Virus record (IMG/VR): IMGVR_UViG_3300040801_004188
DNA: 41,380 nucleotides
Reading direction: 5' to 3' (one strand)
Origin: a virus
The notes below the pieces were generated by a model. The model worked only from the letters and a program-made list of their open reading frames with translations. It ran no database searches and was not told where the DNA came from. Position numbers and translations under genes: made by a program. Below are positions 1 through 41,380 of this stretch, in pieces. Each line of letters starts with the position of its first letter. Position 1 is the first letter of the stretch.

Positions 1-117
1 TCGCGGAACCGATCTTCCTCCGGGGTTCCAGGTTATGTTCGTGCGACGACCAACCCAGACTGTGACTCGTGGGTGAGGAAGTTGATCGACTGGTGGATTG
101 GAGAGGATGGGTTTCCA
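1..117. repeat. 117-bp segment identical to 41264..41380 (end overlap of a circular or terminally redundant genome)
   Basis: Base-by-base comparison of both window ends; both copies lie in frame inside the terL reading frame. Confidence 0.95.
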
Positions 118-3860: not shown

Positions 3861-4791
3861 GGACGATAAAGAAGGTCAGGACCGGATTGAAAAGCTGATG
3901 AAGCGAATCTGGAGACAGCGAATCTACCTGCCTCTTTTGCGACAGCTCCGAAGGAAACAGACGTCTGTGGCGAATTCCAACGATCCAGTCTACGACGCTT
4001 TAGCTTCGGGTCGCATCAGGTTTGACAGGGGCAAGGTCACTGGGAGATTCAACGCCTCCATATCCAAGCGTCTTCGGGAGTTGGGCGGCCAATATGACCG
4101 CGCCTTAAAGGCCTATCGGTTACCGAAAGCAGCCCTGACAACGGACATGAAAAGTGCAATCGCCCTGTCCGAGACAAACTTTTTAAAGACCATGCAGGCC
4201 ATGGACCGAGAACTTAGTAAAATGTTGCCGGAAGAAATTGCCGGGTCCATGAAGTTTGAGAAGATTTTTGACACTACGCTTTTTAAGGTAAACAAGGATA
4301 TTGAGGACAAGATGAAGGGCTTGATTGTGGGCCCGAAATTGACAAAAGAAGGGCGAGCAAGATTTGCCGAGGAGTACACGACCAACCTCCAGAGGTACAT
4401 TAAGGATTTCACGGAAAAAGAAGTGTTAAAGTTGCGAAAGACAGTGCAGAAGCACGTTTCCGAGGGTGGCCGGTATGAGGATCTGGTCAAGTCCATCGAA
4501 AAAAGTTATGGGGTCACGACAAATAAGGCTAAATTTCTGGCGCGGCAAGAAACCAATTTGATGACCTCGGCCTTTAAGAAAACCCGGCTGACGGATTACG
4601 GGGTCAATGAATATCGGTGGTCCACGGTGGCGGGGTCAGCTAGCCATCCGGTTAGGCCCATGCACAAAAGACTGGACGGAAAAACTTTTTCTTGGGATGC
4701 TCCCCCTATAACCGATGATAAGGGCAATCGGAATCATCCTGGAGAAGATTACAATTGTCGGTGTAAAGCGATCCCCATTGTGAGGTTTTAG
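3832..4791 (+). CDS. Minor head / head morphogenesis protein (Mu F / SPP1 gp7-like)
   Basis: The C-terminal HPVRPMHKRLDGKTF...NHPGEDYNCRCKAIPIV is the typical MuF-family signature. It sits downstream of the portal. Confidence 0.85.
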   Translation: MKTKQLSPIEDDKEGQDRIEKLMKRIWRQRIYLPLLRQLRRKQTSVANSNDPVYDALASGRIRFDRGKVTGRFNASISKRLRELGGQYDRALKAYRLPKAALTTDMKSAIALSETNFLKTMQAMDRELSKMLPEEIAGSMKFEKIFDTTLFKVNKDIEDKMKGLIVGPKLTKEGRARFAEEYTTNLQRYIKDFTEKEVLKLRKTVQKHVSEGGRYEDLVKSIEKSYGVTTNKAKFLARQETNLMTSAFKKTRLTDYGVNEYRWSTVAGSASHPVRPMHKRLDGKTFSWDAPPITDDKGNRNHPGEDYNCRCKAIPIVRF

Positions 4792-5867
4792 TGATTAAGA
4801 AGATGCTCAATGAAATTCAAAAGACCCTGAATGGTAAGCCGAGGGTTTACTACGGTCTGCATTTCGCCGAGGGTGTCGCCGAATATAGCGATGACCAAGG
4901 AGAGTATCGGATTTTTGTTAGCAATCAGACTGCTAAAAAGATGAACCAGACTTTCGCGGGTTGCCATCTGTATGTAAACCATGTCAATGAAGTTGATTAC
5001 GATAACCCTAATCCCGACCAAAAGCCTGACGGGTACGTGGTCGAGTCGTTTTTTAATCAAGCCGATGGCAAGCATTGGGCCAAGTTTATCGTAACGTCTG
5101 AAGCCGGTGAGGAAGCCATTCGCAAGGGGTGGACCCTTTCAAACGCCTATTACATCAAAAAGTTTGGTGAGGGTGGTCGTTGGCACAATGTTGAATATCG
5201 AAATGAAGTTCTCGAAGGTGAGTTCTACCATCTCTCGCTCGTCCCAAATCCACGTTACGAGTATTCTGTGGTATTGACCCCGGAAGAATTTAAGGAATAC
5301 AATGCCCGTCAAGAGGCAGAACTTTACAATATAGCCAATTCTAAAGGAGAAGAATCCATGCTTAATCTTTTTAAGAAAACGAAAGTCGACAATTCTAAAG
5401 AACTCGCCGAGACAATGGTCACTTTGCCTAAATCCAAGGTGGACATGACTTTGGAAGACTGCGCCCGTTTGGCCGATCAGGTAACAAATGAAAAGGACGA
5501 GCCTAAAAAGTGCAACATGGAAGATCTCGTTGAGGTTAACGGCGAAGAAATGACCGTTAAGGAATTGGTGTCCGCTTACAACAAGTCCAAGAAAAATGAA
5601 GAGGACGAGGCCAAAAAGAAAGAGCAGGCCAAGAATGAAGAGGACGAGGAAGAAGCGGAAAATAAAAAGAACGAGGAAGACGAAGAAGCCGAAAACAAAA
5701 AAAACAAAGAGGACGAAGAAAAACAAAACGCCCTCGAAGCCCAAAGAAAAAAGGCTGAGTTCGAGGCTTTGAAAAACGCTCACCTCGATCAGACAAGCGT
5801 TGTGCGAATCGAAACTGGAGCTGACATGATTGCGCGCGGAAAAGCTCGCTACGGTTCTGGACGGTAA
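4791..5867 (+). CDS. Putative prohead protease/scaffolding protein (DUF2213-like) with an E/K-rich C-terminal region
   Basis: Lies between the MuF-like and capsid genes. HLSLVPNPRYE resembles DUF2213. The coiled-coil-like charged tail includes EEDEEEAENKKNEEDEEAENKKNKEDEE. The start is GTG 4791 or ATG 4803. Confidence 0.6.
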   Translation: MIKKMLNEIQKTLNGKPRVYYGLHFAEGVAEYSDDQGEYRIFVSNQTAKKMNQTFAGCHLYVNHVNEVDYDNPNPDQKPDGYVVESFFNQADGKHWAKFIVTSEAGEEAIRKGWTLSNAYYIKKFGEGGRWHNVEYRNEVLEGEFYHLSLVPNPRYEYSVVLTPEEFKEYNARQEAELYNIANSKGEESMLNLFKKTKVDNSKELAETMVTLPKSKVDMTLEDCARLADQVTNEKDEPKKCNMEDLVEVNGEEMTVKELVSAYNKSKKNEEDEAKKKEQAKNEEDEEEAENKKNEEDEEAENKKNKEDEEKQNALEAQRKKAEFEALKNAHLDQTSVVRIETGADMIARGKARYGSGR

Positions 5868-5895
5868 AACAGGAAACTTTTAAAAGGAGAAATCA

Positions 5896-6369
5896 ATGTC
5901 TTTAAATCCAAACCAATTTGAACAAAGTGTCGTTAAGGGTCAGCTCGACCTTAAAATGCAACCCTCTGTTATCTCTTGCCAGGTCAAGAGTGATGAATCA
6001 ACTCCATTAGTTCCCGGCCAAGCCGTACTGATGGTGGATTCCGCCGGGGGCGTTCCGAAGGTGACTGCGGCCACCACGGATGAAGAGGACATTTTTGGTT
6101 TCGTGGTTCGCAACAACAAGCAAGCCTCTTTTGCCGCTGGTGAAGCCGTGGAAATCGCAATGGGCCGTGGTTGCGTAATGTATATGGAAGCTGGAGCCGC
6201 TATTGCTCGCAATGCCCAAGTGCAGATTGTGATCACTGGTCAAAAAGTAATCACTGCTGCTGTGGGTGATCACCGCATTGTTGGTCGGGCTTTAGATAAG
6301 GCAGCGGCAAATACCGACCTTATTCGTGTGTGGATTGATTTACCGGGCGCTCAAACCGCTTCGGCTTAA
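5896..6369 (+). CDS. Putative head decoration/cement protein (DUF2190-like)
   Basis: 157 aa immediately upstream of the major capsid gene, with a strong RBS (AAGGAG). Composition is Gly/Ala/Val-rich and beta-like. Confidence 0.5.
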   Translation: MSLNPNQFEQSVVKGQLDLKMQPSVISCQVKSDESTPLVPGQAVLMVDSAGGVPKVTAATTDEEDIFGFVVRNNKQASFAAGEAVEIAMGRGCVMYMEAGAAIARNAQVQIVITGQKVITAAVGDHRIVGRALDKAAANTDLIRVWIDLPGAQTASA

Positions 6370-6395: not shown

Positions 6396-7436
6396 ATGGG
6401 AAAGAAGTACGAAATTTTAAATGACAAAGGCGAGCCGATCGTATTGAACCAGTACGAGCAGAAGCGCGCTCAAATTAACCAGCGATTGATGAACGATCTC
6501 GGTTACGACATCGACATCACCGCTCTTACCACCATCATGAAAAAGGTGACTTCGCAGAAATTCTACGAAATCGCCCCGGCGGATTACCTGCCTGTTCGTG
6601 TCGGTGAAGGCGCTTGGAGCCAGCAGCTTACCACGTATCGTTCATTTGCGGTCGGTGATGATTTCTCCACTGGTATTGTGAATACAGGTGCTGGAGACTC
6701 CCGTTTAGCTGTGGCTGATGCTGGAGTGGACAGCCTGTCTGTGCCTGTGTTCAATTGGGCAAAAAGCATTGGTTGGACCATCATGGACCTGGAGCAAGCT
6801 TCCAAAGCCGGAAACTGGGATTTGGTTACCGCCAAGGAAAAATCCAGAAAGCAAAACTGGGACCTCGGTATCCAGCGCGTGGCTTTCCTCGGCTTGGCAG
6901 GAAGCGCCAGTGTCAAGGGTCTCCTCAATCAGAGTGGTGTTACAAACAATACCTCTCGCATCACCAAGTACATCAAGGACATGACTCCAGCGGAGATCAC
7001 CACGTTCCTTGGCGGGTTGCTGGGTGACTATCGTACAAATTGTGCTCGCACAGCTTGGCCGACCCACTTCATCATTCCCGAAACCGATTACCTCGGTTTG
7101 GCTACACCTCCCGATTCAACTTACCCACTGAAAACAAAGTTGGAGTTGATTCAGGATGCCATGCGCGTGATGACCAAAAACCCCAACTTCCAGGTGTTGC
7201 CTCTAGCATATTGCGATGCGGGTGCGGATGGGGTTGATCCCGACGATGCTTACTACGTTCTTTTGAACTACGAGGAAGAGTCGCTTCGCATGGACATTCC
7301 CGTGGACTACACCTCTACAATGGCGAACAGCTTTAACAGCTTCAATTTCACCAACGTAGGGTACGGTCAGTTCACTGGAGCCCTTGCTTACCGCCCCAAG
7401 GAGTTGATGTACTTTTCTTGGGACACCAACGCCTAA
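6396..7436 (+). CDS. Major capsid protein
   Basis: 346 aa, RBS AAGGGAG. Position follows scaffold and decoration genes and is followed by a hairpin. From memory it resembles the DUF2184-type capsid family. Confidence 0.8.
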   Translation: MGKKYEILNDKGEPIVLNQYEQKRAQINQRLMNDLGYDIDITALTTIMKKVTSQKFYEIAPADYLPVRVGEGAWSQQLTTYRSFAVGDDFSTGIVNTGAGDSRLAVADAGVDSLSVPVFNWAKSIGWTIMDLEQASKAGNWDLVTAKEKSRKQNWDLGIQRVAFLGLAGSASVKGLLNQSGVTNNTSRITKYIKDMTPAEITTFLGGLLGDYRTNCARTAWPTHFIIPETDYLGLATPPDSTYPLKTKLELIQDAMRVMTKNPNFQVLPLAYCDAGADGVDPDDAYYVLLNYEEESLRMDIPVDYTSTMANSFNSFNFTNVGYGQFTGALAYRPKELMYFSWDTNA

Positions 7437-33207: not shown

Positions 33208-33530
33208 GTCGAGTAGAAGATGCAATTCAAGAGTTAATTGACGACCACCTTAGCGGTGTGGATTACGCCGAGCAGGACCATCTGGAATCTTTAGAGTCCA
33301 GAGTTGATGAACTTAACGAGAAGATTCAGGATCTTGAGTCGGTTAACAACCGATTGAAAGAGATTGTGGACGATCAACTGGAAATTAACGCTGATGTTGT
33401 CGATCAATTCAAATTAAAAGTGCAACAGGAAACTGGGTGGATTCAAGAGCTTATTGTGAATGAGTTACCCGGCGCTGTTCTTAAATTACTAAAGAGGTTC
33501 ATTTCCAAAACGGAAGAAGGAGGTAACTAA
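33204..33530 (+). CDS. Highly acidic coiled-coil protein (108 aa)
   Basis: 26 of 108 residues are D/E by my count, with heptad-like spacing. ATGA coupled. Confidence 0.6.
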   Translation: MSRVEDAIQELIDDHLSGVDYAEQDHLESLESRVDELNEKIQDLESVNNRLKEIVDDQLEINADVVDQFKLKVQQETGWIQELIVNELPGAVLKLLKRFISKTEEGGN

Positions 33531-34504
33531 TGAGCCATCAAGGTGAATCAATGATGTCCGCTAACGCGGTTGTTCCATGGCACGGCCTCGGCGAAATTGT
33601 CGAGGGTGCGCCCTGTGCAGAAGAAGCTATTAAGTTGGCAGGTCTTAATTGGACTGCCGATGAAGTTCCCCTGTTCTCCAAACTTGGAGACGGGGTTTTT
33701 AAAGAAGTTGATACTCATAAACAGATTGTGCGAAGCACGGATGGTCGCCAACTGGGTGTGGTCGGCTCCAATTACACTCCGGTCCAGAACAAGGATGCTT
33801 TTAAATGGTTTGATCCCTTTATTGAAAGTGGTTTCGCCACCATTGAGACTGCTGGCAGTTTACGGCAAGGCAAGAAGGTCTGGGTCTTGGCGAAGCTCAA
33901 TAAGAAGCCCATCACCGTTGCGAAGGGCGATCAGATCAATAAGTATCTGTTACTGTCCAATGGGCATGATGGGGCCACGGCTGTAAGAGTCGGGTTCACT
34001 CCAATCCGAGTGGTCTGTAACAATACGCTTTCGGCGGCTGAAGCTGATCGAGGCGGGTCGAAGCTTATTCGTATCAGTCACACTCGTCGAGTTATGGACT
34101 CCCTGGACAAGATTCAGGAAACTATTAATGCGGTGGACGCCAAGTTTGAGGCCACGGCAGAGCAGTATAAGTTCTTGGTATCGAAAAGCGACATCAAAGA
34201 AGAAGACATCAAGTCCTATGTTGAGGTTCTCTTCATGAGTGGTAAGCAAAAGACTGAACGGTACGAAATGCGACTCAATAAAATGACCGAAGACATCACT
34301 AGGCTGTTTGAGTCGGGTCGCGGTAACAACCTTAAGTCGGTGCGCGGCACTTATTGGGCTCTCTATAATGGAGTCACGGAATACCTCTCATACGAAGCGG
34401 GTAAAAGTGCTGACGCCAGGCTGAATAAGTTATGGTTTGGTCGTAACTTTACCAAGAACTCTGAAGCTCTCAAGGTTGCAGTGAAGATGGCAGGTGGCCG
34501 ATGA
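33530..34504 (+). CDS. DUF932-family protein
   Basis: VPWHGLG...NYTPVQN...LLSNGHDGATAVRVGFTPIRVVCNNTL matches the DUF932 / phage-plasmid-like family as I recall it. Confidence 0.7.
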   Translation: MSHQGESMMSANAVVPWHGLGEIVEGAPCAEEAIKLAGLNWTADEVPLFSKLGDGVFKEVDTHKQIVRSTDGRQLGVVGSNYTPVQNKDAFKWFDPFIESGFATIETAGSLRQGKKVWVLAKLNKKPITVAKGDQINKYLLLSNGHDGATAVRVGFTPIRVVCNNTLSAAEADRGGSKLIRISHTRRVMDSLDKIQETINAVDAKFEATAEQYKFLVSKSDIKEEDIKSYVEVLFMSGKQKTERYEMRLNKMTEDITRLFESGRGNNLKSVRGTYWALYNGVTEYLSYEAGKSADARLNKLWFGRNFTKNSEALKVAVKMAGGR

Positions 34505-34752
34505 AGAAGATTCTGGACACTGACTTAATTCGCATTTTTGATGCGGAGGACTCATACCAAGTTTACATTACCGCCCAATCCGGGGTGGTGATCGAGCATG
34601 AACCATTTCCTCATGACCAGCGCGGCCTCGTCGCCGCTCTGATGCTGGCGACTGATGTTTTAGCCGGAAAGGTCTGGTTAAAAGATGTCTGCATCGTTCA
34701 TCGGGACAAACTTAACCCGCCGGAGCGGGTAAAATTAGAGGGTTTAGTTTGA
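34501..34752 (+). CDS. Hypothetical protein (83 aa)
   Basis: ATGA coupled; last gene before the terminator. Confidence 0.5.
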   Translation: MKKILDTDLIRIFDAEDSYQVYITAQSGVVIEHEPFPHDQRGLVAALMLATDVLAGKVWLKDVCIVHRDKLNPPERVKLEGLV

Positions 34753-35175
34753 ACTAAATCTTGAGATGCTCCAGGGCGGGAACCAGTCCCGCCCATTTTT
34801 TTGCCATCCCCAGTACTCCAACCACAGCGCAGCCTTTTCGTACTTTTCGCAAAACAATTTTGTGTGCAACTTGTGAATCTCGTCATGATGAACGTGGCAA
34901 AGAGGCATTAAGTTTGCGTGGATGTCGGGTCCACCGGCTCCTTTACTGACTATATGGTGGCCAATTGTGGTCTTGGTCATTCCACAAATTAGGCATTCTC
35001 TGCCTTGGTACAGGTCAAGAAGCTCACGATCTACAACGCGCTTGACCTTCCAACACGATTGCCCATGCTTCTTCGACAGACGCAGCGAACCCGCCCCAGC
35101 CTCCATGGGTTTTGATGTTGTCGATAAAGAGTTGTTGGTTCCTGAATCTTTTTTCTTTTTTATTTTTCCCGCCAT
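34744..35175 (-). CDS. HNH endonuclease
   Basis: CLICGM...GHHIVSKGAGGPD...NLMPLCHVHHDEIH (C-x2-C plus HNH). The start is ambiguous (35175 or Met at 35106). Either choice overlaps the upstream gene. Confidence 0.75.
   Translation of the reverse strand: MAGKIKKKKDSGTNNSLSTTSKPMEAGAGSLRLSKKHGQSCWKVKRVVDRELLDLYQGRECLICGMTKTTIGHHIVSKGAGGPDIHANLMPLCHVHHDEIHKLHTKLFCEKYEKAALWLEYWGWQKNGRDWFPPWSISRFSSN
34774..34802 (+). terminator. Rho-independent terminator of the rightward early operon
   Basis: GGGCGGGA-accag-TCCCGCCC (8-bp GC-rich stem), then A and 7 T. It lies inside the 3' coding end of the antisense HNH gene. Confidence 0.8.
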
Positions 35176-35458
35176 ATCCCATTATCTCCGCGTGCTTTTT
35201 GGCCCACCATTTCAGTTCATTTGGGGTCTTAATCTCGATGGCATAAAAAATGGTGTTATAGACACCCAGCACGTCGCTGATTCCATTGATGATGAACTTG
35301 TGGCTGGCTTGTTTGGCGACCTTGGTCCTTGAATCAAAAGTGATCGGGTATTCGGCTTTCCAAAAGAAGCCCTGTTTCAAATTGAGGTAGGTGAGAACCT
35401 GAATCTCGATGTCCCGTTCGGAGGACTTTTTGTTTCCATAAACCCTTGAATAATCCAT
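35024..35458 (-). CDS. VRR-NUC / PD-(D/E)XK nuclease
   Basis: ERDIEIQVLTYL...GISDVLGVYNTIFYAIEIKT is the VRR-NUC D...E-x-K pattern. ATG at 35458 is preferred over the TTG at 35494. Confidence 0.7.
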   Translation of the reverse strand: MDYSRVYGNKKSSERDIEIQVLTYLNLKQGFFWKAEYPITFDSRTKVAKQASHKFIINGISDVLGVYNTIFYAIEIKTPNELKWWAKKHAEIMGYGGKNKKEKRFRNQQLFIDNIKTHGGWGGFAASVEEAWAIVLEGQARCRS

Positions 35459-35513
35459 GCCTTTAGAAGTAGCATAACCCGAACGATGTACCAAATCTAA
35501 AAGCGGAGGGACG

Positions 35514-36173
35514 ATGAGCAGTAAAAAAGACTTGTCAATGGACGAGATTAAACCAGCAGACTACAACCCGAGAATAATTAGCGACCCTGAAAGTAACGCC
35601 CTGGATTATTCAATGAAGGAGTTTGGTGATATTTCAGGCATTACTTGGAACCGTCAAACGGGAAATCTTGTGACTGGACACCAGCGGTACAACCGTCTTG
35701 TGGAAAAGTACGGTAAATTGACTTTTGGTCGCCTTATAAATGGGCGACGAGACATCATTAGCGAAGGAAACGTGCCGACTGGTTACGACCTTCGAGAAGT
35801 TGATTGGCCTGAAGACAAGGAATTGGCCGCAAACTTGGCCGCCAATTCTCACACCAATCAAGGTAAATGGGACCTGGAGGCGATGCCTGAACTTTTGGCA
35901 AAACTGGAAGACGACTTTGCCACTAACCTTCGGCTGGATATGTTGGCTGCGGATTTGGACATTGACCTTATGGCGGCAGGTTCAGGTGAAGAGTCCGATA
36001 GCGGGGGAAGTTGGGAGCCTGACGAGAAAACTGCCAATGTTCCAGAGGGCGACCGCAGGCCACCTGTAAAGTTCATGATTAAGTGTCGGTTTGAAGATCA
36101 GGAAGACCTGGTTCAAGCCATTAGAGATATGTTGGCCGAAGCTGATTTTGAAGAAGTTGAAATTTTATGCTGA
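35514..36173 (+). CDS. Stand-alone ParB-like N-terminal domain protein with an acidic C-terminus
   Basis: IKPADYNPRII...FGDISGITWNRQTGNLVTGHQRYNRL...LAANLAANSHTNQGKWD is the ParBc pattern usually fused to phage DNA methyltransferases. RBS GGAGGG. Confidence 0.8.
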   Translation: MSSKKDLSMDEIKPADYNPRIISDPESNALDYSMKEFGDISGITWNRQTGNLVTGHQRYNRLVEKYGKLTFGRLINGRRDIISEGNVPTGYDLREVDWPEDKELAANLAANSHTNQGKWDLEAMPELLAKLEDDFATNLRLDMLAADLDIDLMAAGSGEESDSGGSWEPDEKTANVPEGDRRPPVKFMIKCRFEDQEDLVQAIRDMLAEADFEEVEILC

Positions 36174-37057
36174 ACATTCTTGTCGCTTATCCGTACTTGG
36201 ATAGTAAGAGCATTACTTTAATCAACGGCCTGAAGGCCAGGGGTGAGTGTCGGTTTATCTTGGACTCTGGGGCCTTTTCTGCTTTCAATTCTGGTCACGA
36301 AATTGATCTTAAAGAATACACTCAATTTGTAAAAAACCGGGAGGTAGACTTTGACTTTGCTGTTCAGCTTGATGTTGTGGGCAATAAGAAAGAGACAATT
36401 GAAAACCTCAAGTACCAGTTGTCCTGTGGAGCCCAAGTTTCCCCCGTTTTCACACGAGGCATGGACTACGAGTACTTGGACGTGATCACCAATAAGCACC
36501 GCCTGACGTTCTGTGGGGGCCTTAAAATGGGTGTGGGAGCGGAAATGAGGAAGTATGGCTTCCCGTATATCAAGAAGCTCTCTACAGCGGGGCGTTTAAA
36601 CAGGTGTCACCTGCTTGGTATTGGGGCCGATGAGATCGCCAAAACCTTCAGGCCCTTCTCAATGGATACGAGCACCAGCACAACTACAGCCAGATATGGT
36701 GCGTTACCGTTATACAACGGGTTTGGCAAACAAAAGTGGTACACGAGAAAGACCTTGAGACTGGAGCGCAGGAAAGCCGCGCCTATGTTGGCTCGCCTCG
36801 GGTTTAAACCTGAAGTCCTGGAGCGCTTGATTCACTCGGATGCAGCATGGAGAGCCACGACTCCGAAATTTGACATCGACGAAGATCGCAGTTTGGCGCA
36901 GAATATTTGTCAAGTGTCGGTCCTTTTAAAAAACATGGATGTGGAAAAAAACATAGGAGTCAAGATGTTCACGGCCTGCACGGACATTCACTCATTAACC
37001 GAAACGATGGGAGCGTACAAATGGATCAAGGACCACAATTTGCTAGAAAAATTCTGA
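36167..37057 (+). CDS. dpdA: DpdA-like DNA-guanine transglycosylase (TGT superfamily)
   Basis: ILDSGAFSAF, CHLLGIG and FSMDTSTS motifs. It overlaps the ParB-like stop by 7 nt and lies next to queCDE/folE. Confidence 0.75.
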   Translation: MLNILVAYPYLDSKSITLINGLKARGECRFILDSGAFSAFNSGHEIDLKEYTQFVKNREVDFDFAVQLDVVGNKKETIENLKYQLSCGAQVSPVFTRGMDYEYLDVITNKHRLTFCGGLKMGVGAEMRKYGFPYIKKLSTAGRLNRCHLLGIGADEIAKTFRPFSMDTSTSTTTARYGALPLYNGFGKQKWYTRKTLRLERRKAAPMLARLGFKPEVLERLIHSDAAWRATTPKFDIDEDRSLAQNICQVSVLLKNMDVEKNIGVKMFTACTDIHSLTETMGAYKWIKDHNLLEKF

Positions 37058-37584
37058 TTCTTAATGGCGGCGGCGCGGAATCGGCTGTGATGCACAGTAA
37101 GTTGATGGGTGCCAAAATTTACAGCCTCTTTTTTGGGACAGGAAACAATTATCACGAAGTTGGGTACGCTAAAAACATTGCTCGAAAAACAGGCGCAGAA
37201 TTTGTGTTTCGAGAAAGCGGATTAAAGTGGGATTCATCAGAGCAGGTCCTTGGTCGAAACGCAGTGTTGACAAATTTAGCTATGACTGTCGGTAAGGAGT
37301 ATGGAGTGGTCGATCTATTTTTAGGTGTGGAGTTGAGTTCAAAGTTCATAGACAATCAGCCTCAATACAATTTGGCTTTAGGTCAGTTGCTGGCGCCATA
37401 CGGGTTCACGCTTCACACGCCGTTTCTTAATGAGTGGCGATTCGCGTTTCCCGATAAGCAGGCGATTTTTAAATATTTGAAACACAATGGCTGGACCACT
37501 GAAGAATTTTACAGTTGTTTCCAGCGCCAAAAGTGTTGGAAGTGCAGAAAATGTTTAGCAGAAAAGGAGGTTTACGGTGATTAG
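37021..37584 (+). CDS. queC: QueC-like 7-cyano-7-deazaguanine synthase (divergent PP-loop)
   Basis: KILILNGGGAESAVMH stands in for the usual SGGxDS motif. The C-terminal cluster SCFQRQKCWKCRKC is C-x6-C-x2-C-x2-C. The start is at the internal ATG 37021. Confidence 0.7.
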   Translation: MDQGPQFARKILILNGGGAESAVMHSKLMGAKIYSLFFGTGNNYHEVGYAKNIARKTGAEFVFRESGLKWDSSEQVLGRNAVLTNLAMTVGKEYGVVDLFLGVELSSKFIDNQPQYNLALGQLLAPYGFTLHTPFLNEWRFAFPDKQAIFKYLKHNGWTTEEFYSCFQRQKCWKCRKCLAEKEVYGD

Positions 37585-38023
37585 CACTAAAGAGTTTTCA
37601 GGTTTTAGCTGCTGTTTTAGGCAATGGCGAGCTACCCACTCTCATTGTCAGTTTCTCCACGGGTACGGAGTCAGTTTTAAAATCTGGTTTGAGGGCGAGA
37701 TGGACGACAGAAATTGGGTCGCTGATTTTGGCGGGTTTAAAGGTCTAAAGCAATACTTCGAGTGCATCTTTGACCACACTGTAGTGATCGCTGACGACGA
37801 TCCAAAGTTGATGGAGTTTGAGGCATTGGCTGAGTCTGGAGTCATCCAGCTAATTACTTTGCCCCATGTGGGTTGCGAGAGGTTTGCAGAGCACGTTTTT
37901 GTTCAAGCTGATGAATTTGTTAAAGAAGTTACTGGAGGCCGAGTTCGGGTTTTACAGGTTGAATTCCGCGAGAATAACAAAAACTCAGCCATTTGCAGGA
38001 GGGAAGATGTTACGGCTCAATGA
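37577..38023 (+). CDS. queD: QueD/PTPS-like 6-carboxytetrahydropterin synthase (divergent)
   Basis: GTG start after AAGGAGG. HCQFLHGYG corresponds to the QueD C-x3-HGH motif. Size and position fit. Confidence 0.65.
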   Translation: MISTKEFSGFSCCFRQWRATHSHCQFLHGYGVSFKIWFEGEMDDRNWVADFGGFKGLKQYFECIFDHTVVIADDDPKLMEFEALAESGVIQLITLPHVGCERFAEHVFVQADEFVKEVTGGRVRVLQVEFRENNKNSAICRREDVTAQ

Positions 38024-38624
38024 TATTTTCTGGACCGTTCAGGGAGAGGGGTTTCACACGGGGAGACGCGCTCTTTTTGTTCGGATGCCTTACTGTAACT
38101 ACGAGTGCCCTTGGTGTGATACCGAGTACAACTCGATTAATTTTAAACTCACGCCGGATGAGTTTAGAAAATTTGCGACACAAGAAAAAGCCAGATTAGC
38201 CGTTATTACAGGTGGCGAACCAGCAATCAATAAGCAGACTCCATTGGTGACTGCGATTTTGAAAGATTTAGGGTTTACCGTAGCCATAGAGACTAACGGC
38301 TCGGTTCCAGCTCCCCCGGGTGTGGATTTTATAACTGTCAGTCCCAAAGCCTACACCAAGGGGAAGTTGGAGCCTTTTTATGTTCACCCAGACCTTTTGC
38401 GAGACTCTCGTCCAAAGCAATACAAGTACGTTTACGAGATGGATTTTGATACCAAGTACCTGGACCGCCACCGCGGTGAGCTTGGGGACCTTCGGACTTG
38501 GTTTTATCTGGGACCAGAATATAACGTGTTCAGCCATTCAGTTGACCAGTGCCTTGAGTACATCAAAAACAACCCAGAGTGGCGCCTGAACCTGCAAACT
38601 CACAAATGGATAGGTGTAAAATGA
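38007..38624 (+). CDS. queE: QueE 7-carboxy-7-deazaguanine synthase (radical SAM)
   Basis: ATG 38007 follows AGGAGGG. Motifs are FWTVQGEG, CNYECPWCDT (C-x3-C-x2-C) and VITGGEP. Confidence 0.85.
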   Translation: MLRLNDIFWTVQGEGFHTGRRALFVRMPYCNYECPWCDTEYNSINFKLTPDEFRKFATQEKARLAVITGGEPAINKQTPLVTAILKDLGFTVAIETNGSVPAPPGVDFITVSPKAYTKGKLEPFYVHPDLLRDSRPKQYKYVYEMDFDTKYLDRHRGELGDLRTWFYLGPEYNVFSHSVDQCLEYIKNNPEWRLNLQTHKWIGVK

Positions 38625-39196
38625 GCGACGCAAAATCAAATGTAGAGAAGTACGTCAGGAGCGCCATGCTGAGTCTGGGTTTGGACGTTATGGCCGACCC
38701 GAGTCTCAAGGACACGCCTGCCAGAATCGCTAAAATGTGGGTAGAGGAAGTCTTCAGCGGACTCTTCGAGAAACCGCCTAAGATGACCATGTTTCCGGCC
38801 CCGTCCGCGCAAATGGTCATTGAGGCCGGGATCACCGTCCGGTCCACCTGTGAACACCACTTCCAGCCAATCTATGGGGTAGCCCACGTTGCCTATATTC
38901 CTGAAAAGAGAATTGTGGGCCTGTCAAAACTGAACAGGGTCGTGGATTACTTCGCTCGCCGTCCGCAGGTGCAGGAAAAGTTGACCAATGAAGTGGCAGA
39001 ATTCCTAAAAGAAAGCCTGCAAACTGAGCACGTCGCCGTTGTGATCGACGCCGAGCACTTCTGTGTAAAGATGAGAGGTATCAAGCACACCGACTGCATG
39101 ACCAGAACGTCTGTTTTGTCGGGCAAATTTTTACAGGCGGGTCTGGCTCGTCAAGAATTCTTCGACGCCATCCCGAAAATCAATGGGTCGAGGTAA
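38621..39196 (+). CDS. folE: GTP cyclohydrolase I
   Basis: ATGA coupling to queE. Motifs are STCEHHFQP and HFCVKMRG. Confidence 0.9.
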   Translation: MSDAKSNVEKYVRSAMLSLGLDVMADPSLKDTPARIAKMWVEEVFSGLFEKPPKMTMFPAPSAQMVIEAGITVRSTCEHHFQPIYGVAHVAYIPEKRIVGLSKLNRVVDYFARRPQVQEKLTNEVAEFLKESLQTEHVAVVIDAEHFCVKMRGIKHTDCMTRTSVLSGKFLQAGLARQEFFDAIPKINGSR

Positions 39197-39371
39197 TCGA
39201 ACTCCAGATTGGGTCCACCGGGTAGTTTATAAGTCGGTGGACCTTAAAAAATCCTGCAAGATGAAGAAGAAGTTCGGCAAGAAAACCGCACACGCCATCG
39301 CTGAAAAGTACGATCAGAGGGCCTATAAGTGCGGTTCGTGTGGGGCTTGGCATTGCACAAGCCGAAAGTAG
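39183..39371 (+). CDS. Small zinc-ribbon-like protein (start may be Met at 39261)
   Basis: C-terminal YKCGSCGAWHCTS motif. No clear RBS for either start. Confidence 0.4.
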   Translation: MGRGNRTPDWVHRVVYKSVDLKKSCKMKKKFGKKTAHAIAEKYDQRAYKCGSCGAWHCTSRK

Positions 39372-39791
39372 TTATTTGCCTAAAACATCATCAATTATAG
39401 TGAAGATGTAGGCATTTCGGACAATTCCAAGGTGGCTCTCGTCCCCGTAAAAGTGATTCTCAGCAAAATGCACAGGGTATCCATGCAGTCCGTGGGGTTG
39501 GTACAAGTTGTGGTGCCTCACTCCAGAGGGCCGGACGTATTCCTGGTGGCTGAACCATCGGGGATCCAAGGTAATGAGAAGCTTCGCCTGTTTGACGTTC
39601 TGAATGGCCGCGTGGGCTCCAAAAGAATGCCCGATCACAATGGCGCGGTCATCGTGGATTTCCCAGCGGTCGGTCCAATGTCGCCTCTCAACTTCAAGTC
39701 GCGGGTATTTCTTGTGGATGTCCCGGATGCAACCTCGATAGAGCCAGAAGAACAGGGCGCCCATAAAGCCTTCGTAGTAGATTAACCTCAT
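39372..39791 (-). CDS. Minimal alpha/beta-hydrolase-like serine hydrolase (139 aa)
   Basis: Nucleophile elbow VIGHSFGA, candidate Asp in LLITLDP and candidate His in DESHLG. Start taken at MRLIYYEG. Confidence 0.55.
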   Translation of the reverse strand: MRLIYYEGFMGALFFWLYRGCIRDIHKKYPRLEVERRHWTDRWEIHDDRAIVIGHSFGAHAAIQNVKQAKLLITLDPRWFSHQEYVRPSGVRHHNLYQPHGLHGYPVHFAENHFYGDESHLGIVRNAYIFTIIDDVLGK

Positions 39792-39939
39792 AAAATCTCC
39801 TTTTTGGGTAATTGTTGTGCAAGTCTCGCCCAAGACTCAACCCAATTTTGGTCTCCATTGGTCCAGCTTGGAAGAAATAGCGCAGAATTTGCCGGTAAAT
39901 GTTGCATAATTGAAATAAATCCATTTAAGGTGATTGTCC

Positions 39940-40518
39940 ATGAGCGATGAAAAGAGCAAGAAAAATTCCAAGAATCCAGCGCCAAAAGGCCGGCCAACGA
40001 AACTGACTCCAGAGGTAATACAAAAGCTGCGTCAGGCAATGCTGACGGGTGTAGACCTAGGGACTGCTGCTGCCTATGTGGGTATCAAAGTGGAGACATA
40101 CCGCAACTGGTTAAAGAGGGGGCGGAATAAAGGGGATGGATTGTATGGGGAGCTTATTCGGACAATTGAGCGGGCTCATGCTGAAGTTCAGATCAAGGAC
40201 TTGATGACGATTGATGCCTTTTCTGTGGGGGTGAAGGCTGAATACCTGATGAGGCCGGCCAAGGACAATCAAGGGAAGGTTCAGTACGACAGGCAGGGTA
40301 ATGTGATTTTGGAGCCAGTGGTGGATGAGAACGGCCGCTACATCAAAATCAAATCTGAAGCCAAGAGAGACTGGAGAGCGGCTGCTTTCCGCTTGGAGCG
40401 CAAGTATGCCCAGTGGCGCAATAAAGAAGAAACCATTCACAGCGGCCAGGTCGGCACGGTCAATCTGACGCTTCCCGACAATGGCAGATCAATAAATAGC
40501 AAGAGGAGGGAAAAATGA
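39940..40518 (+). CDS. terS: Terminase small subunit
   Basis: ATG 39940 follows AAGGTG. GRPTKLTPEVIQKLRQAMLTGVDLGTAAAYVGIKVETYRNWLKRG is an HTH-type terS N-terminus. It lies upstream of terL. Confidence 0.7.
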   Translation: MSDEKSKKNSKNPAPKGRPTKLTPEVIQKLRQAMLTGVDLGTAAAYVGIKVETYRNWLKRGRNKGDGLYGELIRTIERAHAEVQIKDLMTIDAFSVGVKAEYLMRPAKDNQGKVQYDRQGNVILEPVVDENGRYIKIKSEAKRDWRAAAFRLERKYAQWRNKEETIHSGQVGTVNLTLPDNGRSINSKRREK

Positions 40519-40799
40519 GAGGCATGGAAATCAAGACATCAGAAGCGCTGGAGAATTCAAGCCCGCCCAAGAGGGCCACAGCAATTCAGGTTGGTGGAGG
40601 GCATTACAAACAAATGGTCATTCAGCCAGTAGAGTTCTGCCAAAAGAATAGGCTGCCCTATTGTGAGGCAAACGCTATTAAGTACCTGTGTCGGCATCGG
40701 GATAAGAATGGGATTGAAGACCTCATGAAGGCCAAGCACTACATAGATCTGCTCATTGAGCTTGAGTACGGCGAGCCTGTTGAAAAAAGAAAAATATGA
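40515..40799 (+). CDS. DUF3310-like protein
   Basis: QVGGGHYK...QPVEFC...ANAIKYLCRHRDKNGIEDLMKAKHYIDLL matches the DUF3310 pattern. It is ATGA coupled on both sides. Confidence 0.7.
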   Translation: MRGMEIKTSEALENSSPPKRATAIQVGGGHYKQMVIQPVEFCQKNRLPYCEANAIKYLCRHRDKNGIEDLMKAKHYIDLLIELEYGEPVEKRKI

Positions 40800-41380
40800 G
40801 TGTTGTCGATGCCTACCTCGCGGCTTTTGACGAGGAAGAGAAAGCTCAAGAAGTGATTGAGTTGGGGCCCCAACAGGGTCCGCAAACTGCCTTTTTGGGC
40901 AGTGAGGCAGACATCGTCATCTATGGCGGGGCCGCGGGTGGTGGAAAGTCCTATGGACTGCTTCTCGAACCACTCCGCCACATTGACCATAACCCAAGGT
41001 TTGGTGGGGTCATCTTTCGCCGAAATAGTAAGCAGGTCCGAAACGAGGGCGGTCTGTGGGATGAGTCGGAGGAGTTGTACCGAGCCTTTGGTGGTCGGCC
41101 AAAAGAGATGAGCTTGAGCTGGAGCTTCCCGTCTGGGGCCACCATGCAGTTCGACCATTTAGAGTACGAGCGTACGGTTCTGAACTGGCAGGGCTCTCAG
41201 ATTCCCTACATAGGCTTCGACGAATTGACACACTTCACCGAAAAGCAATTCTTCTATATGCTCTCGCGGAACCGATCTTCCTCCGGGGTTCCAGGTTATG
41301 TTCGTGCGACGACCAACCCAGACTGTGACTCGTGGGTGAGGAAGTTGATCGACTGGTGGATTGGAGAGGATGGGTTTCCA
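40796..41380 (+). CDS. terL: Terminase large subunit, N-terminal ATPase part (open at window end; continues at base 118 after the overlap)
   Basis: The ATG overlaps the upstream TGA. Walker A is YGGAAGGGKSYG and Walker B is YIGFDELTHF. There is no stop before 41380. It is absent from the ORF track because it is open-ended. Confidence 0.9.
   Translation, partial: MSVVDAYLAAFDEEEKAQEVIELGPQQGPQTAFLGSEADIVIYGGAAGGGKSYGLLLEPLRHIDHNPRFGGVIFRRNSKQVRNEGGLWDESEELYRAFGGRPKEMSLSWSFPSGATMQFDHLEYERTVLNWQGSQIPYIGFDELTHFTEKQFFYMLSRNRSSSGVPGYVRATTNPDCDSWVRKLIDWWIGEDGFP
41264..41380. repeat. Second copy of the 117-bp end overlap
   Basis: Identical to 1..117. Confidence 0.95.

Follow-up and report, generated by a model that had tools for sequence, protein, structure and literature searches.

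We analyzed a six-gene operon for 7-deazaguanine DNA modification at positions 35514–39196 (+ strand) of the viral record IMGVR_UViG_3300040801_004188, a stretch of 41,380 nt referred to below as the window. Its first gene encodes a stand-alone ParB-like protein and its second a DpdA-type DNA-guanine transglycosylase, followed by genes for a short QueC-like protein, QueD, QueE and the GTP cyclohydrolase FolE. The coupling of a ParB-like gene to dpdA is the rule for the clade of phage DpdAs to which the enzyme of the window belongs, and a partner role of the ParB-like protein is well supported by genomics. We consider it probable that the six genes form a self-contained module replacing guanine in phage DNA post-replicatively, with the acidic ParB-fold protein acting as partner or activator of DpdA. 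An original prediction, made from the sequence alone, had described six overlap-coupled genes with these identities, with which the list of open reading frames (ORFs) and searches with hidden Markov models (HMMs) agree at levels well above chance. It had also proposed a partnership between the first two proteins, a hypothesis that is now better supported and more general than first put forward.

The ParB-like gene (35514–36173, +; 219 aa, isoelectric point (pI) 4.4) is preceded by a GGAGG ribosome-binding site 5 nt upstream of its start and overlaps dpdA (36167–37057, +; 296 aa, pI 9.2) by 7 nt, as had been reported. The six ORFs are translationally coupled throughout, with successive overlaps of 7, 37, 8, 17 and 4 nt, and a single ParB-like, a single DpdA-like and a single QueC-like ORF were found in the window. 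We surveyed the 80 viral contigs that carry the DpdAs closest to that of the window, out of 445 relatives found. First-pass HMMs placed a ParB-like ORF of ~180–240 aa next to or overlapping dpdA in 64 of these 80 loci (54 of 66 clusters at 90% identity). Rebuilding the HMM from the dpdA-linked ORFs revealed a ParB-like neighbor at ~75 of the 77 evaluable loci; three loci were cut by a contig end, and two (L171 and L172) had no ParB-like gene. An HMM built from the dpdA-adjacent ParB-like ORFs of other contigs, with the window excluded, matched the window protein at E = 7e-29. The original prediction had regarded the ParB-like lead gene as unusual; it is instead the norm for this clade, and the arrangement already occurs in the annotated cultured phages Rosebush, TA17A, Saguaro, Typha and phiSM.

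The pair is also maintained when its surroundings change, being found with que genes upstream (L100, L154), on the opposite strand (L163) or absent (L093, L152). This bears on the idea that the ParB-like gene belongs to the packaging or late region, for instance with an accessory function at the pac site or for the terminase or with a role in transcriptional regulation, and came to adjoin dpdA through insertion of the cassette before the terminase. In the window, Rosebush, Saguaro, Typha, L001 and L196, the terminase genes do follow the operon immediately, a few stand-alone homologs are followed directly by terminase genes, and some records annotate the corresponding gp1 as a transcriptional regulator or DNA-binding protein. 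However, the pair is kept at the distal end of the que genes, on its own, or in a replication module far from the terminase, and in Cellulophaga phage phiSM it adjoins the polymerase processivity factor. In-frame fusions to DpdA-type domains, the lack of a predicted helix-turn-helix (HTH) and the charge complementarity with DpdA described below point to the pair itself, and we regard a packaging or regulatory function as very improbable.

Two variations of the arrangement were seen among related loci. In L001/L002, a DUF6884 gene with weak similarity to YaaA (6608–7030) is inserted between the ParB-like gene and dpdA. Two ParB-like paralogs lie upstream of dpdA in L151 (the L006 contig, 4132–5989) and L158 (3857–5986), separated by ~500–740 bp.

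In addition to adjacency, the two functions occur within single polypeptides. L142 contains one 461-aa ORF with a ParB-like domain at residues 1–164 and DpdA at residues 188–454, and gp1 of Mycobacterium phage Knocker consists of a ParB-like N-domain fused to DUF6610, the family named DpdA4 by Cui et al. The ParB-like protein of the window gave no significant BLASTP match to Knocker gp1 and a weak one by hhalign against the single sequence (E = 0.054); the two ParB-like subfamilies are joined only by profile–profile comparison and by the enlarged HMM. A hidden ParB-like N-terminus was looked for in the DpdA4 protein of HVTV-1 (gp69) and none was found. The Knocker locus (L085, 1–3188) also encodes a separate DpdA (gp3), a QueF-like protein (gp2) and a CxxCxxCC, DpdM-like protein (gp4); this phage thus carries two TGT-like proteins and probably makes a preQ1-type modification.

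The partners are, moreover, electrostatically complementary. The ParB-like proteins found beside dpdA are acidic (median pI 4.64, 97% below 6), and the DpdAs that they accompany are basic (median pI 9.39, n = 73), while the six DpdAs without a ParB-like neighbor are near-neutral (median pI 5.84). The acidic/basic pattern is shared by Rosebush, Saguaro, Knocker and L196 and is not seen in phiSM. In a neighbor-joining tree, which carries no support values, all six ParB-less DpdAs (CAjan, pVco-14, Erebus, RHph_N17, L171 and L172) fell into one clade, and no ParB-like ORF was found in the flanks of these six dpdA loci. Taken together, conserved adjacency, fusions and charge complementarity strongly back a functional link between the ParB-like protein and DpdA. 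The four cultured phages among them, CAjan, pVco-14, Erebus and RHph_N17 (L086, L087, L190 and L191), carry dpdA next to the genes for the DNA polymerase III β-clamp and PolB or at most ~500 bp upstream of them; one might speculate that ParB-less DpdAs use the sliding clamp in place of a ParB-like partner.

The sequence and predicted structure of the ParB-like protein place it in the ParB/Srx (ParB-CTPase fold) superfamily, with a Box II motif of the GxxR type. It matched PHROG 620 (E = 1.9e-24) and PHROG 498, a DNA methyltransferase N-terminus (E = 8.5e-22), and its sole PADLOC match was likewise a methyltransferase N-terminus; no Pfam family, PF02195 included (E ≤ 0.01), and no NCBIfam model matched. 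The protein comprises a ParB-CTPase-like N-domain (residues ~8–115), an acidic helical or disordered linker (116–185) and a strand–helix C-terminal element (186–219). The segments YNPR, FGDISG, GHQR (Box II), R-VDWP and AANLAANS are invariant in homologs, and within Box II the conservation of G55, H56 and R58 reaches 80% or more among 69 unique DpdA-linked partners. The profile of the protein matched the ParB chains 4UMK (E = 1.7e-4) and 6SDK, with GHQR aligned to their nucleotide-binding GERR box. An AlphaFold2 model (pLDDT 75.9) shows the ParB N-domain, three acidic helices, a disordered acidic stretch at 156–174 and a confident C-terminal helix. The best Foldseek matches of this model were all ParB N-domains (5K5D, 8QA9 KorB, 7BNK, 6RYK PadC and 7OL9 Noc; probability 0.9–1.0), and the best matches in the PDB include pNOB8 ParB, KorB, Myxococcus xanthus ParB with CDP or CTPγS, PadC and Noc.

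A canonical partition ParB was considered and rejected: neither an HTH nor a dimerization domain is predicted, the neighbors are dpdA and nuclease genes, and no match to the ParA family was obtained among the window ORFs scanned. It is likewise extremely unlikely, in our judgment, that the protein is a nuclease or nickase whose task is to open the DNA for base exchange or to break down the DNA of the host. The database name "ParB-like nuclease domain" invites this idea, and Osa, another protein of the ParB/Srx fold, has nuclease activity. SspE, of the same fold, is also active as a nuclease, but its nicking activity resides in a separate C-terminal EHxxP domain (PMC10164549), which is absent from the window protein. 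The protein is, furthermore, acidic, and its conserved residues fit a nucleotide-binding Box II rather than a nuclease site.

The original prediction had suggested that the ParB-like protein might be the phage counterpart of bacterial DpdB, recalling that bacterial DpdA depends on this partner. The literature agrees with the latter point: bacterial DpdA needs DpdB, a ParB-fold ATPase with a DGQQR motif, and the ATPase activity is required for preQ0 insertion (PMC10164549). The two systems resemble each other in that a gene for a TGT-fold DNA transglycosylase with three retained catalytic aspartates adjoins and overlaps a gene for a ParB-fold protein, and DGQQR and the GHQR of the window share the GxxR type. 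Gene order differs, being dpdA–dpdB in bacteria and ParB-like–dpdA in the window, as do the proteins. DpdB, a member of the DGQHR/DndB clade, is 375 aa long and carries a helical SspE-like domain at its C-terminus, whereas the window protein has 219 aa and no such domain; nor does the window hold any of the restriction or ADG genes dpdC–K of the bacterial Dpd system. The HMM comparison with DpdB that had been suggested returned no family match: neither the DpdB (NF041060) nor the DGQHR (TIGR03187) model of NCBIfam hit the ParB-like protein at E ≤ 0.01, while the same models scored 473 and 244 bits on a genuine DpdB (L173:5675–6802), and the DpdB HMM found nothing in the window. By hhalign, the ParB-like protein matched DpdB with a probability of 2.2%, with the Box II region alone aligned. 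We therefore rejected a true DpdB homolog at the family level, a length of 219 against ~375 aa also speaking against it. Of the proposal, the functional link to DpdA is supported by adjacency, fusions and charge, and the homology to DpdB is not.

In the mechanism that we propose, FolE, QueD and QueE would convert GTP to 7-carboxy-7-deazaguanine (CDG), which the short QueC-like enzyme would convert to preQ0. DpdA, with its predicted TGT-fold TIM barrel, would then exchange guanine in the double-stranded phage DNA for the 7-deazaguanine after replication, and the modified virion DNA would resist many restriction enzymes. The acidic ParB-like protein would bind the basic DpdA, and nucleotide-dependent dimerization of its N-domain (Box II GHQR) would assemble or activate DpdA on duplex DNA, making it a functional counterpart of the bacterial ParB-fold ATPase DpdB. 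We infer this nucleotide-driven dimerization by analogy to ParB, KorB and DpdB; TGT enzymes act as dimers, which fits the proposal. Contact with DNA would probably be made by DpdA, because the ParB-like protein is acidic and has no HTH.

A stronger version of this mechanism, which we advance only tentatively and hold at somewhat less than even, makes the ParB-fold protein an obligatory, nucleotide-gated subunit of DpdA, a compact analog of DpdB, and its family a portable adaptor that loads unrelated DNA-modifying enzymes. With the same reserve, the clients of such an adaptor might comprise DpdA, the DpdA4-like DUF6610 proteins, N6/N4 and C5 methyltransferases, Mom, TAGT and radical-SAM enzymes. 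If true, this would explain the ParB–methyltransferase fusions, the inactivity of phiSM DpdA1 on its own and possibly the failed expression of DpdA3 and DpdA4.

The wider distribution of the ParB-like family was examined from the side of the ParB-like protein, also in 80 viral contigs. About half of the homologs were ParB-N/N6_N4-methyltransferase fusions, and one of the 80 had dpdA downstream; the rare association that this count suggested was overturned by the survey from the DpdA side. All ten long homologs sampled were N6_N4 fusions, in line with the original statement that the module is usually fused to phage DNA methyltransferases. These fusions (PHROG 498) share the N-domain family, with 35–50% identity over ~130 residues and the same motifs, while the window domain stands alone with its own acidic tail and is paired with a transglycosylase. 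The genes that follow stand-alone homologs in 38 further viral contigs encode TAGT (5), radical SAM (4), Methyltransf_23 (4), Mom (3), GNAT (3) and C5 DNA methylase (2) proteins, as well as PAPS reductase, Tet_JBP, DUF5131 and ABC ATPase. Among actinophages, the ParB-like gp1 of Phaedrus (L090, 73–2606) leads a PAPS reductase and a second ParB-like gene, and that of BiggityBass (L092, 1–2473) an ABC ATPase and a methyltransferase, in both cases before the terminase; these gp1 cassettes point to a swappable modification slot.

The role of the ParB-like domain in methyltransferase fusions is an open question in the literature (PMC12704722, PMC12783734). A 2025 survey of the ParB-CTPase fold lists the phage methyltransferase fusions and never mentions the words "transglycosylase" or "DpdB" (PMC12704722), and ParBc proteins beside the phage cytosine carboxymethyltransferase CmoX are described as of "function unknown" (PMC12783734, 2025). 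Our literature search, with subscription journals outside its coverage, returned no paper that links a ParB-like protein to phage DpdA, and the two main phage deazaguanine papers were not returned when the word "ParB" was required.

This breadth of cassettes, including the actinophage examples and the CmoX neighbors, is what favors a reading of the ParB-like protein as a general accessory of modification cassettes, that is, a DNA-tracking or self-DNA-targeting tether that raises the processivity or selectivity of DpdA without being needed for catalysis. The activity of phage 9g DpdA on its own agrees with it. Against it, a strongly acidic protein with neither an HTH nor another evident DNA-binding domain is unlikely to track DNA unaided; the charge complementarity is specific to partnered DpdAs; and phiSM DpdA expressed alone is inactive. 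We therefore think such an accessory role rather improbable, noting that it overlaps with the dedicated partner that we prefer and differs from it mainly on essentiality.

Several observations nevertheless weigh against a dedicated partner of DpdA. In E. coli, the DpdA of phage 9g needs no partner to insert preQ0 into plasmids (PMC6884629), and DpdA2 of VH7D is likewise active by itself, so that DpdA chemistry does not generally require a partner; 9g DpdA belongs to the ParB-less clade, and no other phage DpdA of this family has been shown to act on its own. The family of the ParB-like protein leads cassettes with quite different enzymes, and in the Bclasvirinae gp1 is kept regardless of the cassette, so its role may be more general than DpdA activation. 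Since the phage protein is not a member of the DpdB family, its likeness to DpdB is one of fold and analogy, not orthology. In phiSM, the Box II arginine of the ParB-like protein is missing and the charge pattern is reversed, from which it follows that a nucleotide switch is not universal. The survey is bounded by its choice of the DpdAs nearest to that of the window, its tree is without support values, and the fused ORF of L142 could be a frameshift artefact of metagenome assembly. Finally, no experiment on any phage ParB-like/DpdA pair was found in the literature.

Phage phiSM stands on both sides of this question. It resembles the window in carrying overlapping dpdA (CEPG_00053) and ParB-like (CEPG_00052) genes in a deazaguanine cluster, and CEPG_00052, annotated as "ParB-like partition protein", matched the HMM of DpdA-linked ParB-like proteins (E = 3.9e-10). 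When expressed alone in E. coli, phiSM DpdA1 was inactive according to Cui et al. (PMC10516641). Unlike in the window, dpdA precedes the ParB-like gene, whose 154-aa product has no Box II arginine and is not acidic, and the phage has QueF and DpdM in addition and makes dPreQ1 and mdPreQ1.

Viewed by itself, the operon is one more phage 7-deazaguanine system, with a divergent DpdA and a rare short QueC. Its main value lies in the survey, which reveals a large DpdA clade whose members are nearly always accompanied by a small, acidic protein of the ParB fold. Should the partner role be borne out, the pair would be the phage equivalent of bacterial DpdA–DpdB, would give a reason for the failed heterologous expression of some DpdAs, and would offer a tractable two-protein model for the ParB-like domains found on DNA-modifying enzymes.

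The DpdA of the window itself is divergent. It was identified by PHROG 887 (E = 2.9e-22), with no match in Pfam, NCBIfam or PADLOC, and tblastn aligned it at ~27% identity to the annotated DpdAs of CAjan, Seurat and mycobacteriophages (E down to 2e-11), the identity to any annotated phage DpdA being at most ~27%. The motifs DSGAF, HLLGIG and MDTSTS named in the original prediction are all present. Catalytic aspartates are kept as D33 (LDSGAF), D69 (LDVVG) and D167 (MDTSTS), together with H148 (CHLLGIG), and these four positions are invariant columns in the alignment of phage DpdAs. In bacterial DpdA, the active-site aspartates are the general acid/base Asp95, Asp130 and the nucleophile Asp256 (PMC10164549). 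The profile of the window DpdA matched the sequence of the Salmonella DpdA crystal structure 7UI4 (E = 0.0097), and hhalign against bacterial DpdAs fetched from genomes gave E = 1.1e-4 over 140 columns, aligning the bacterial segments GDCGAF, LDHIV, IDSTT and VHLLGI. Because the equivalents of Asp95, Asp130 and Asp256 are thereby matched, the catalytic machinery appears intact.

The dpdA gene is directly clustered with the 7-deazaguanine synthesis genes, those for the QueC-like protein, QueD, QueE and FolE, and the last three products are recognizable, with catalytic motifs, from their sequences. The QueD-like 6-carboxytetrahydropterin synthase (37577–38023, +; 148 aa, GTG start) matched the QueD-like PHROG 2389 (E = 2.7e-36) and Pfam PTPS (E = 4.6e-14). 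The QueE-like radical-SAM 7-carboxy-7-deazaguanine synthase (~38007–38624, +, the start being approximate; 205 aa) matched PHROG 2076 (E = 7e-32) and Pfam Radical_SAM (E = 4.7e-9); its C-x3-C-x2-C motif, noted previously, reads CNYECPWC, and its match to NCBIfam TIGR04508 (queE, E = 2.4e-31) scored under the equivalog cut-off. GTP cyclohydrolase I FolE (start ~38621, end 39196, +; 191 aa), with the expected CEHHFQP, exceeded the cut-off of 202 bits for NCBIfam NF006824 with 214.9 bits and matched Pfam GTP_cyclohydroI at E = 2.7e-58.

The QueC-like PP-loop ATPase (37021–37584, +; 187 aa, with ATG 37021 as the most likely start) is the atypical member of the pathway. It matched Pfam QueC in its C-terminal half only (E = 2.3e-9, 37.5 bits against a cut-off of 22) and PADLOC QueC over its full length (E = 6e-12), but reached 28.9 bits with TIGR00364, far under the cut-off of 150.3, and was not detected when canonical QueCs were used as queries. 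Its PP-loop reads GGGAES in place of the canonical SGGxDS, ~25 residues spanning the conserved VPxGHY...TVVP segment are gone, and the YPDCR motif is replaced by FIDNQP, while the C-terminal four-cysteine zinc cluster is kept. An exhaustive phmmer search of 1.84 billion representatives yielded only 10 relatives, among them a small family of 178–192 aa in which the PP-loop grades from SGGxDS to GGGAES, while neither the glycines and serine of this loop nor the four cysteines of the zinc cluster vary. The same short form occupies the QueC slot of the related operon L196. To judge by these features, the protein belongs to a distinct short subfamily of the QueC superfamily rather than to canonical QueC. 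A decaying gene was considered and dropped in view of the short family with its invariant PP-loop and zinc residues and of the use of such a protein in a second operon; activity of the enzyme is probable.

These features also bear on the base that is inserted. The original prediction had named dPreQ0 as the simplest product; the slots of the preQ0 pathway are indeed filled, and conversion of CDG to preQ0 is the most likely activity of the QueC-like enzyme, but the assignment is less safe with a rare short QueC. Because this QueC is atypical, the final base (preQ0, 7-amido-7-deazaguanine (ADG) or CDG) is uncertain. The enzyme might stop at ADG, as proposed for QueC* of Campylobacter phages, or ignore CDG, giving dADG or dCDG, or host preQ0 might be used. 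The failure of canonical QueCs to find the protein, its low TIGR00364 score and the lost residues and motif speak for such an outcome, as does the ability of DpdA enzymes to insert CDG or preQ1. The closest relative of the QueC-like protein (P0041; L194/L195, 5001–7544) is followed by an N6_N4 methyltransferase and ParB_N with no other que genes, an indication that the subfamily is not tied to preQ0 synthesis and may have a role outside it. Given that the QueC slot is held by such a gene both here and in L196, and that the PP-loop and zinc residues are invariant, we regard a base other than preQ0 made by the operon, or recourse to host preQ0, as unlikely, though by a smaller measure than the other alternatives. 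In agreement with the original prediction, tblastn found no QueF in the window, nor homologs of DpdM, DUF6884, YhhQ, DpdA4 or DpdB, and no Gat domain or second TGT-like gene is present; dPreQ1, mdPreQ1 and dG+ are therefore unlikely products.

As a deazaguanine module the operon is already known, and the window holds a divergent member. The closest characterized system is that of Rosebush, with a ParB-like gp1 (annotated "ParB-like partition protein"), DpdA gp2, QueC gp3, QueD gp4, QueE gp5 and FolE gp6, overlap-coupled and directly before the large terminase gp7; TA17A and Saguaro (Bclasvirinae) have the same six genes in the same order as the window. In Rosebush, dPreQ0 takes the place of ~28% of G, and the DNA is resistant to several restriction enzymes (PMC6884629), so that the predicted post-replicative 7-deazaguanine modification holds for a phage with the same operon. 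The differences are nonetheless considerable. Rosebush DpdA is only ~22% identical to that of the window; its ParB-like protein, with NPRRGD and GNHT instead of YNPR and GHQR, belongs to a different subfamily (hhalign E = 1.8e-4, 49% probability); its QueC is canonical; and Rosebush is an actinophage siphovirus, whereas the phage of the window is myovirus-like with a Mu-type portal. A divergent metagenomic relative, L196, has the six genes in the same order at 31–65% amino-acid identity, followed by the terminase and a Mu-type portal. The Queuovirinae type (CAjan and 9g of Escherichia and pVco-14 of Vibrio; also Erebus of Aminobacter and RHph_N17 of Rhizobium) shares the broad DpdA family at ~27% identity, the genes for FolE, QueD, QueE and QueC, and a post-replicative dPreQ0 or dG+ modification that protects against restriction; in contrast to the window, it has no ParB-like gene near dpdA, and its DpdAs (pI 5.7–6.3) form a separate clade.

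The ends of the window (1–117 and 41264–41380) share one identical stretch of 117 bp, and the ORF of the large terminase crosses the junction, indicating that the contig represents a complete, circular or circularly permuted phage genome of ~41,263 bp (41.3 kb). No match was obtained when the operon was compared by megablast with 50,697 phage records; the phage therefore has no close cultured relative among them. Besides the portal, the genome codes for a major head protein, tail sheath, endolysin and recombination genes. The operon is flanked on one side by a divergent nuclease/HNH pair and lies on the other directly upstream of the terminase genes, beginning with a small-terminase-like gene at 39934–40518. 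A promoter and terminator scan of 34900–40000 gave counts not above those of shuffled sequence.

The divergent pair consists of two overlapping candidate genes, an HNH/DUF968-like nuclease ORF (34744–35175, −) and an ORF matching the endonuclease family PHROG 93 (35024–35494, −). Further upstream of the operon lies a DUF932 protein gene (33530–34504, +; Pfam E = 1.5e-52), and a DUF3310 protein gene (40515–40799, +) is found between the small-terminase-like and large terminase genes. The portal protein (992–2920, +; PHROG 146) contains a C-terminal NUDIX/MutT-like region at residues 505–621 (PHROG 1198, E = 1e-19), an unusual fusion.

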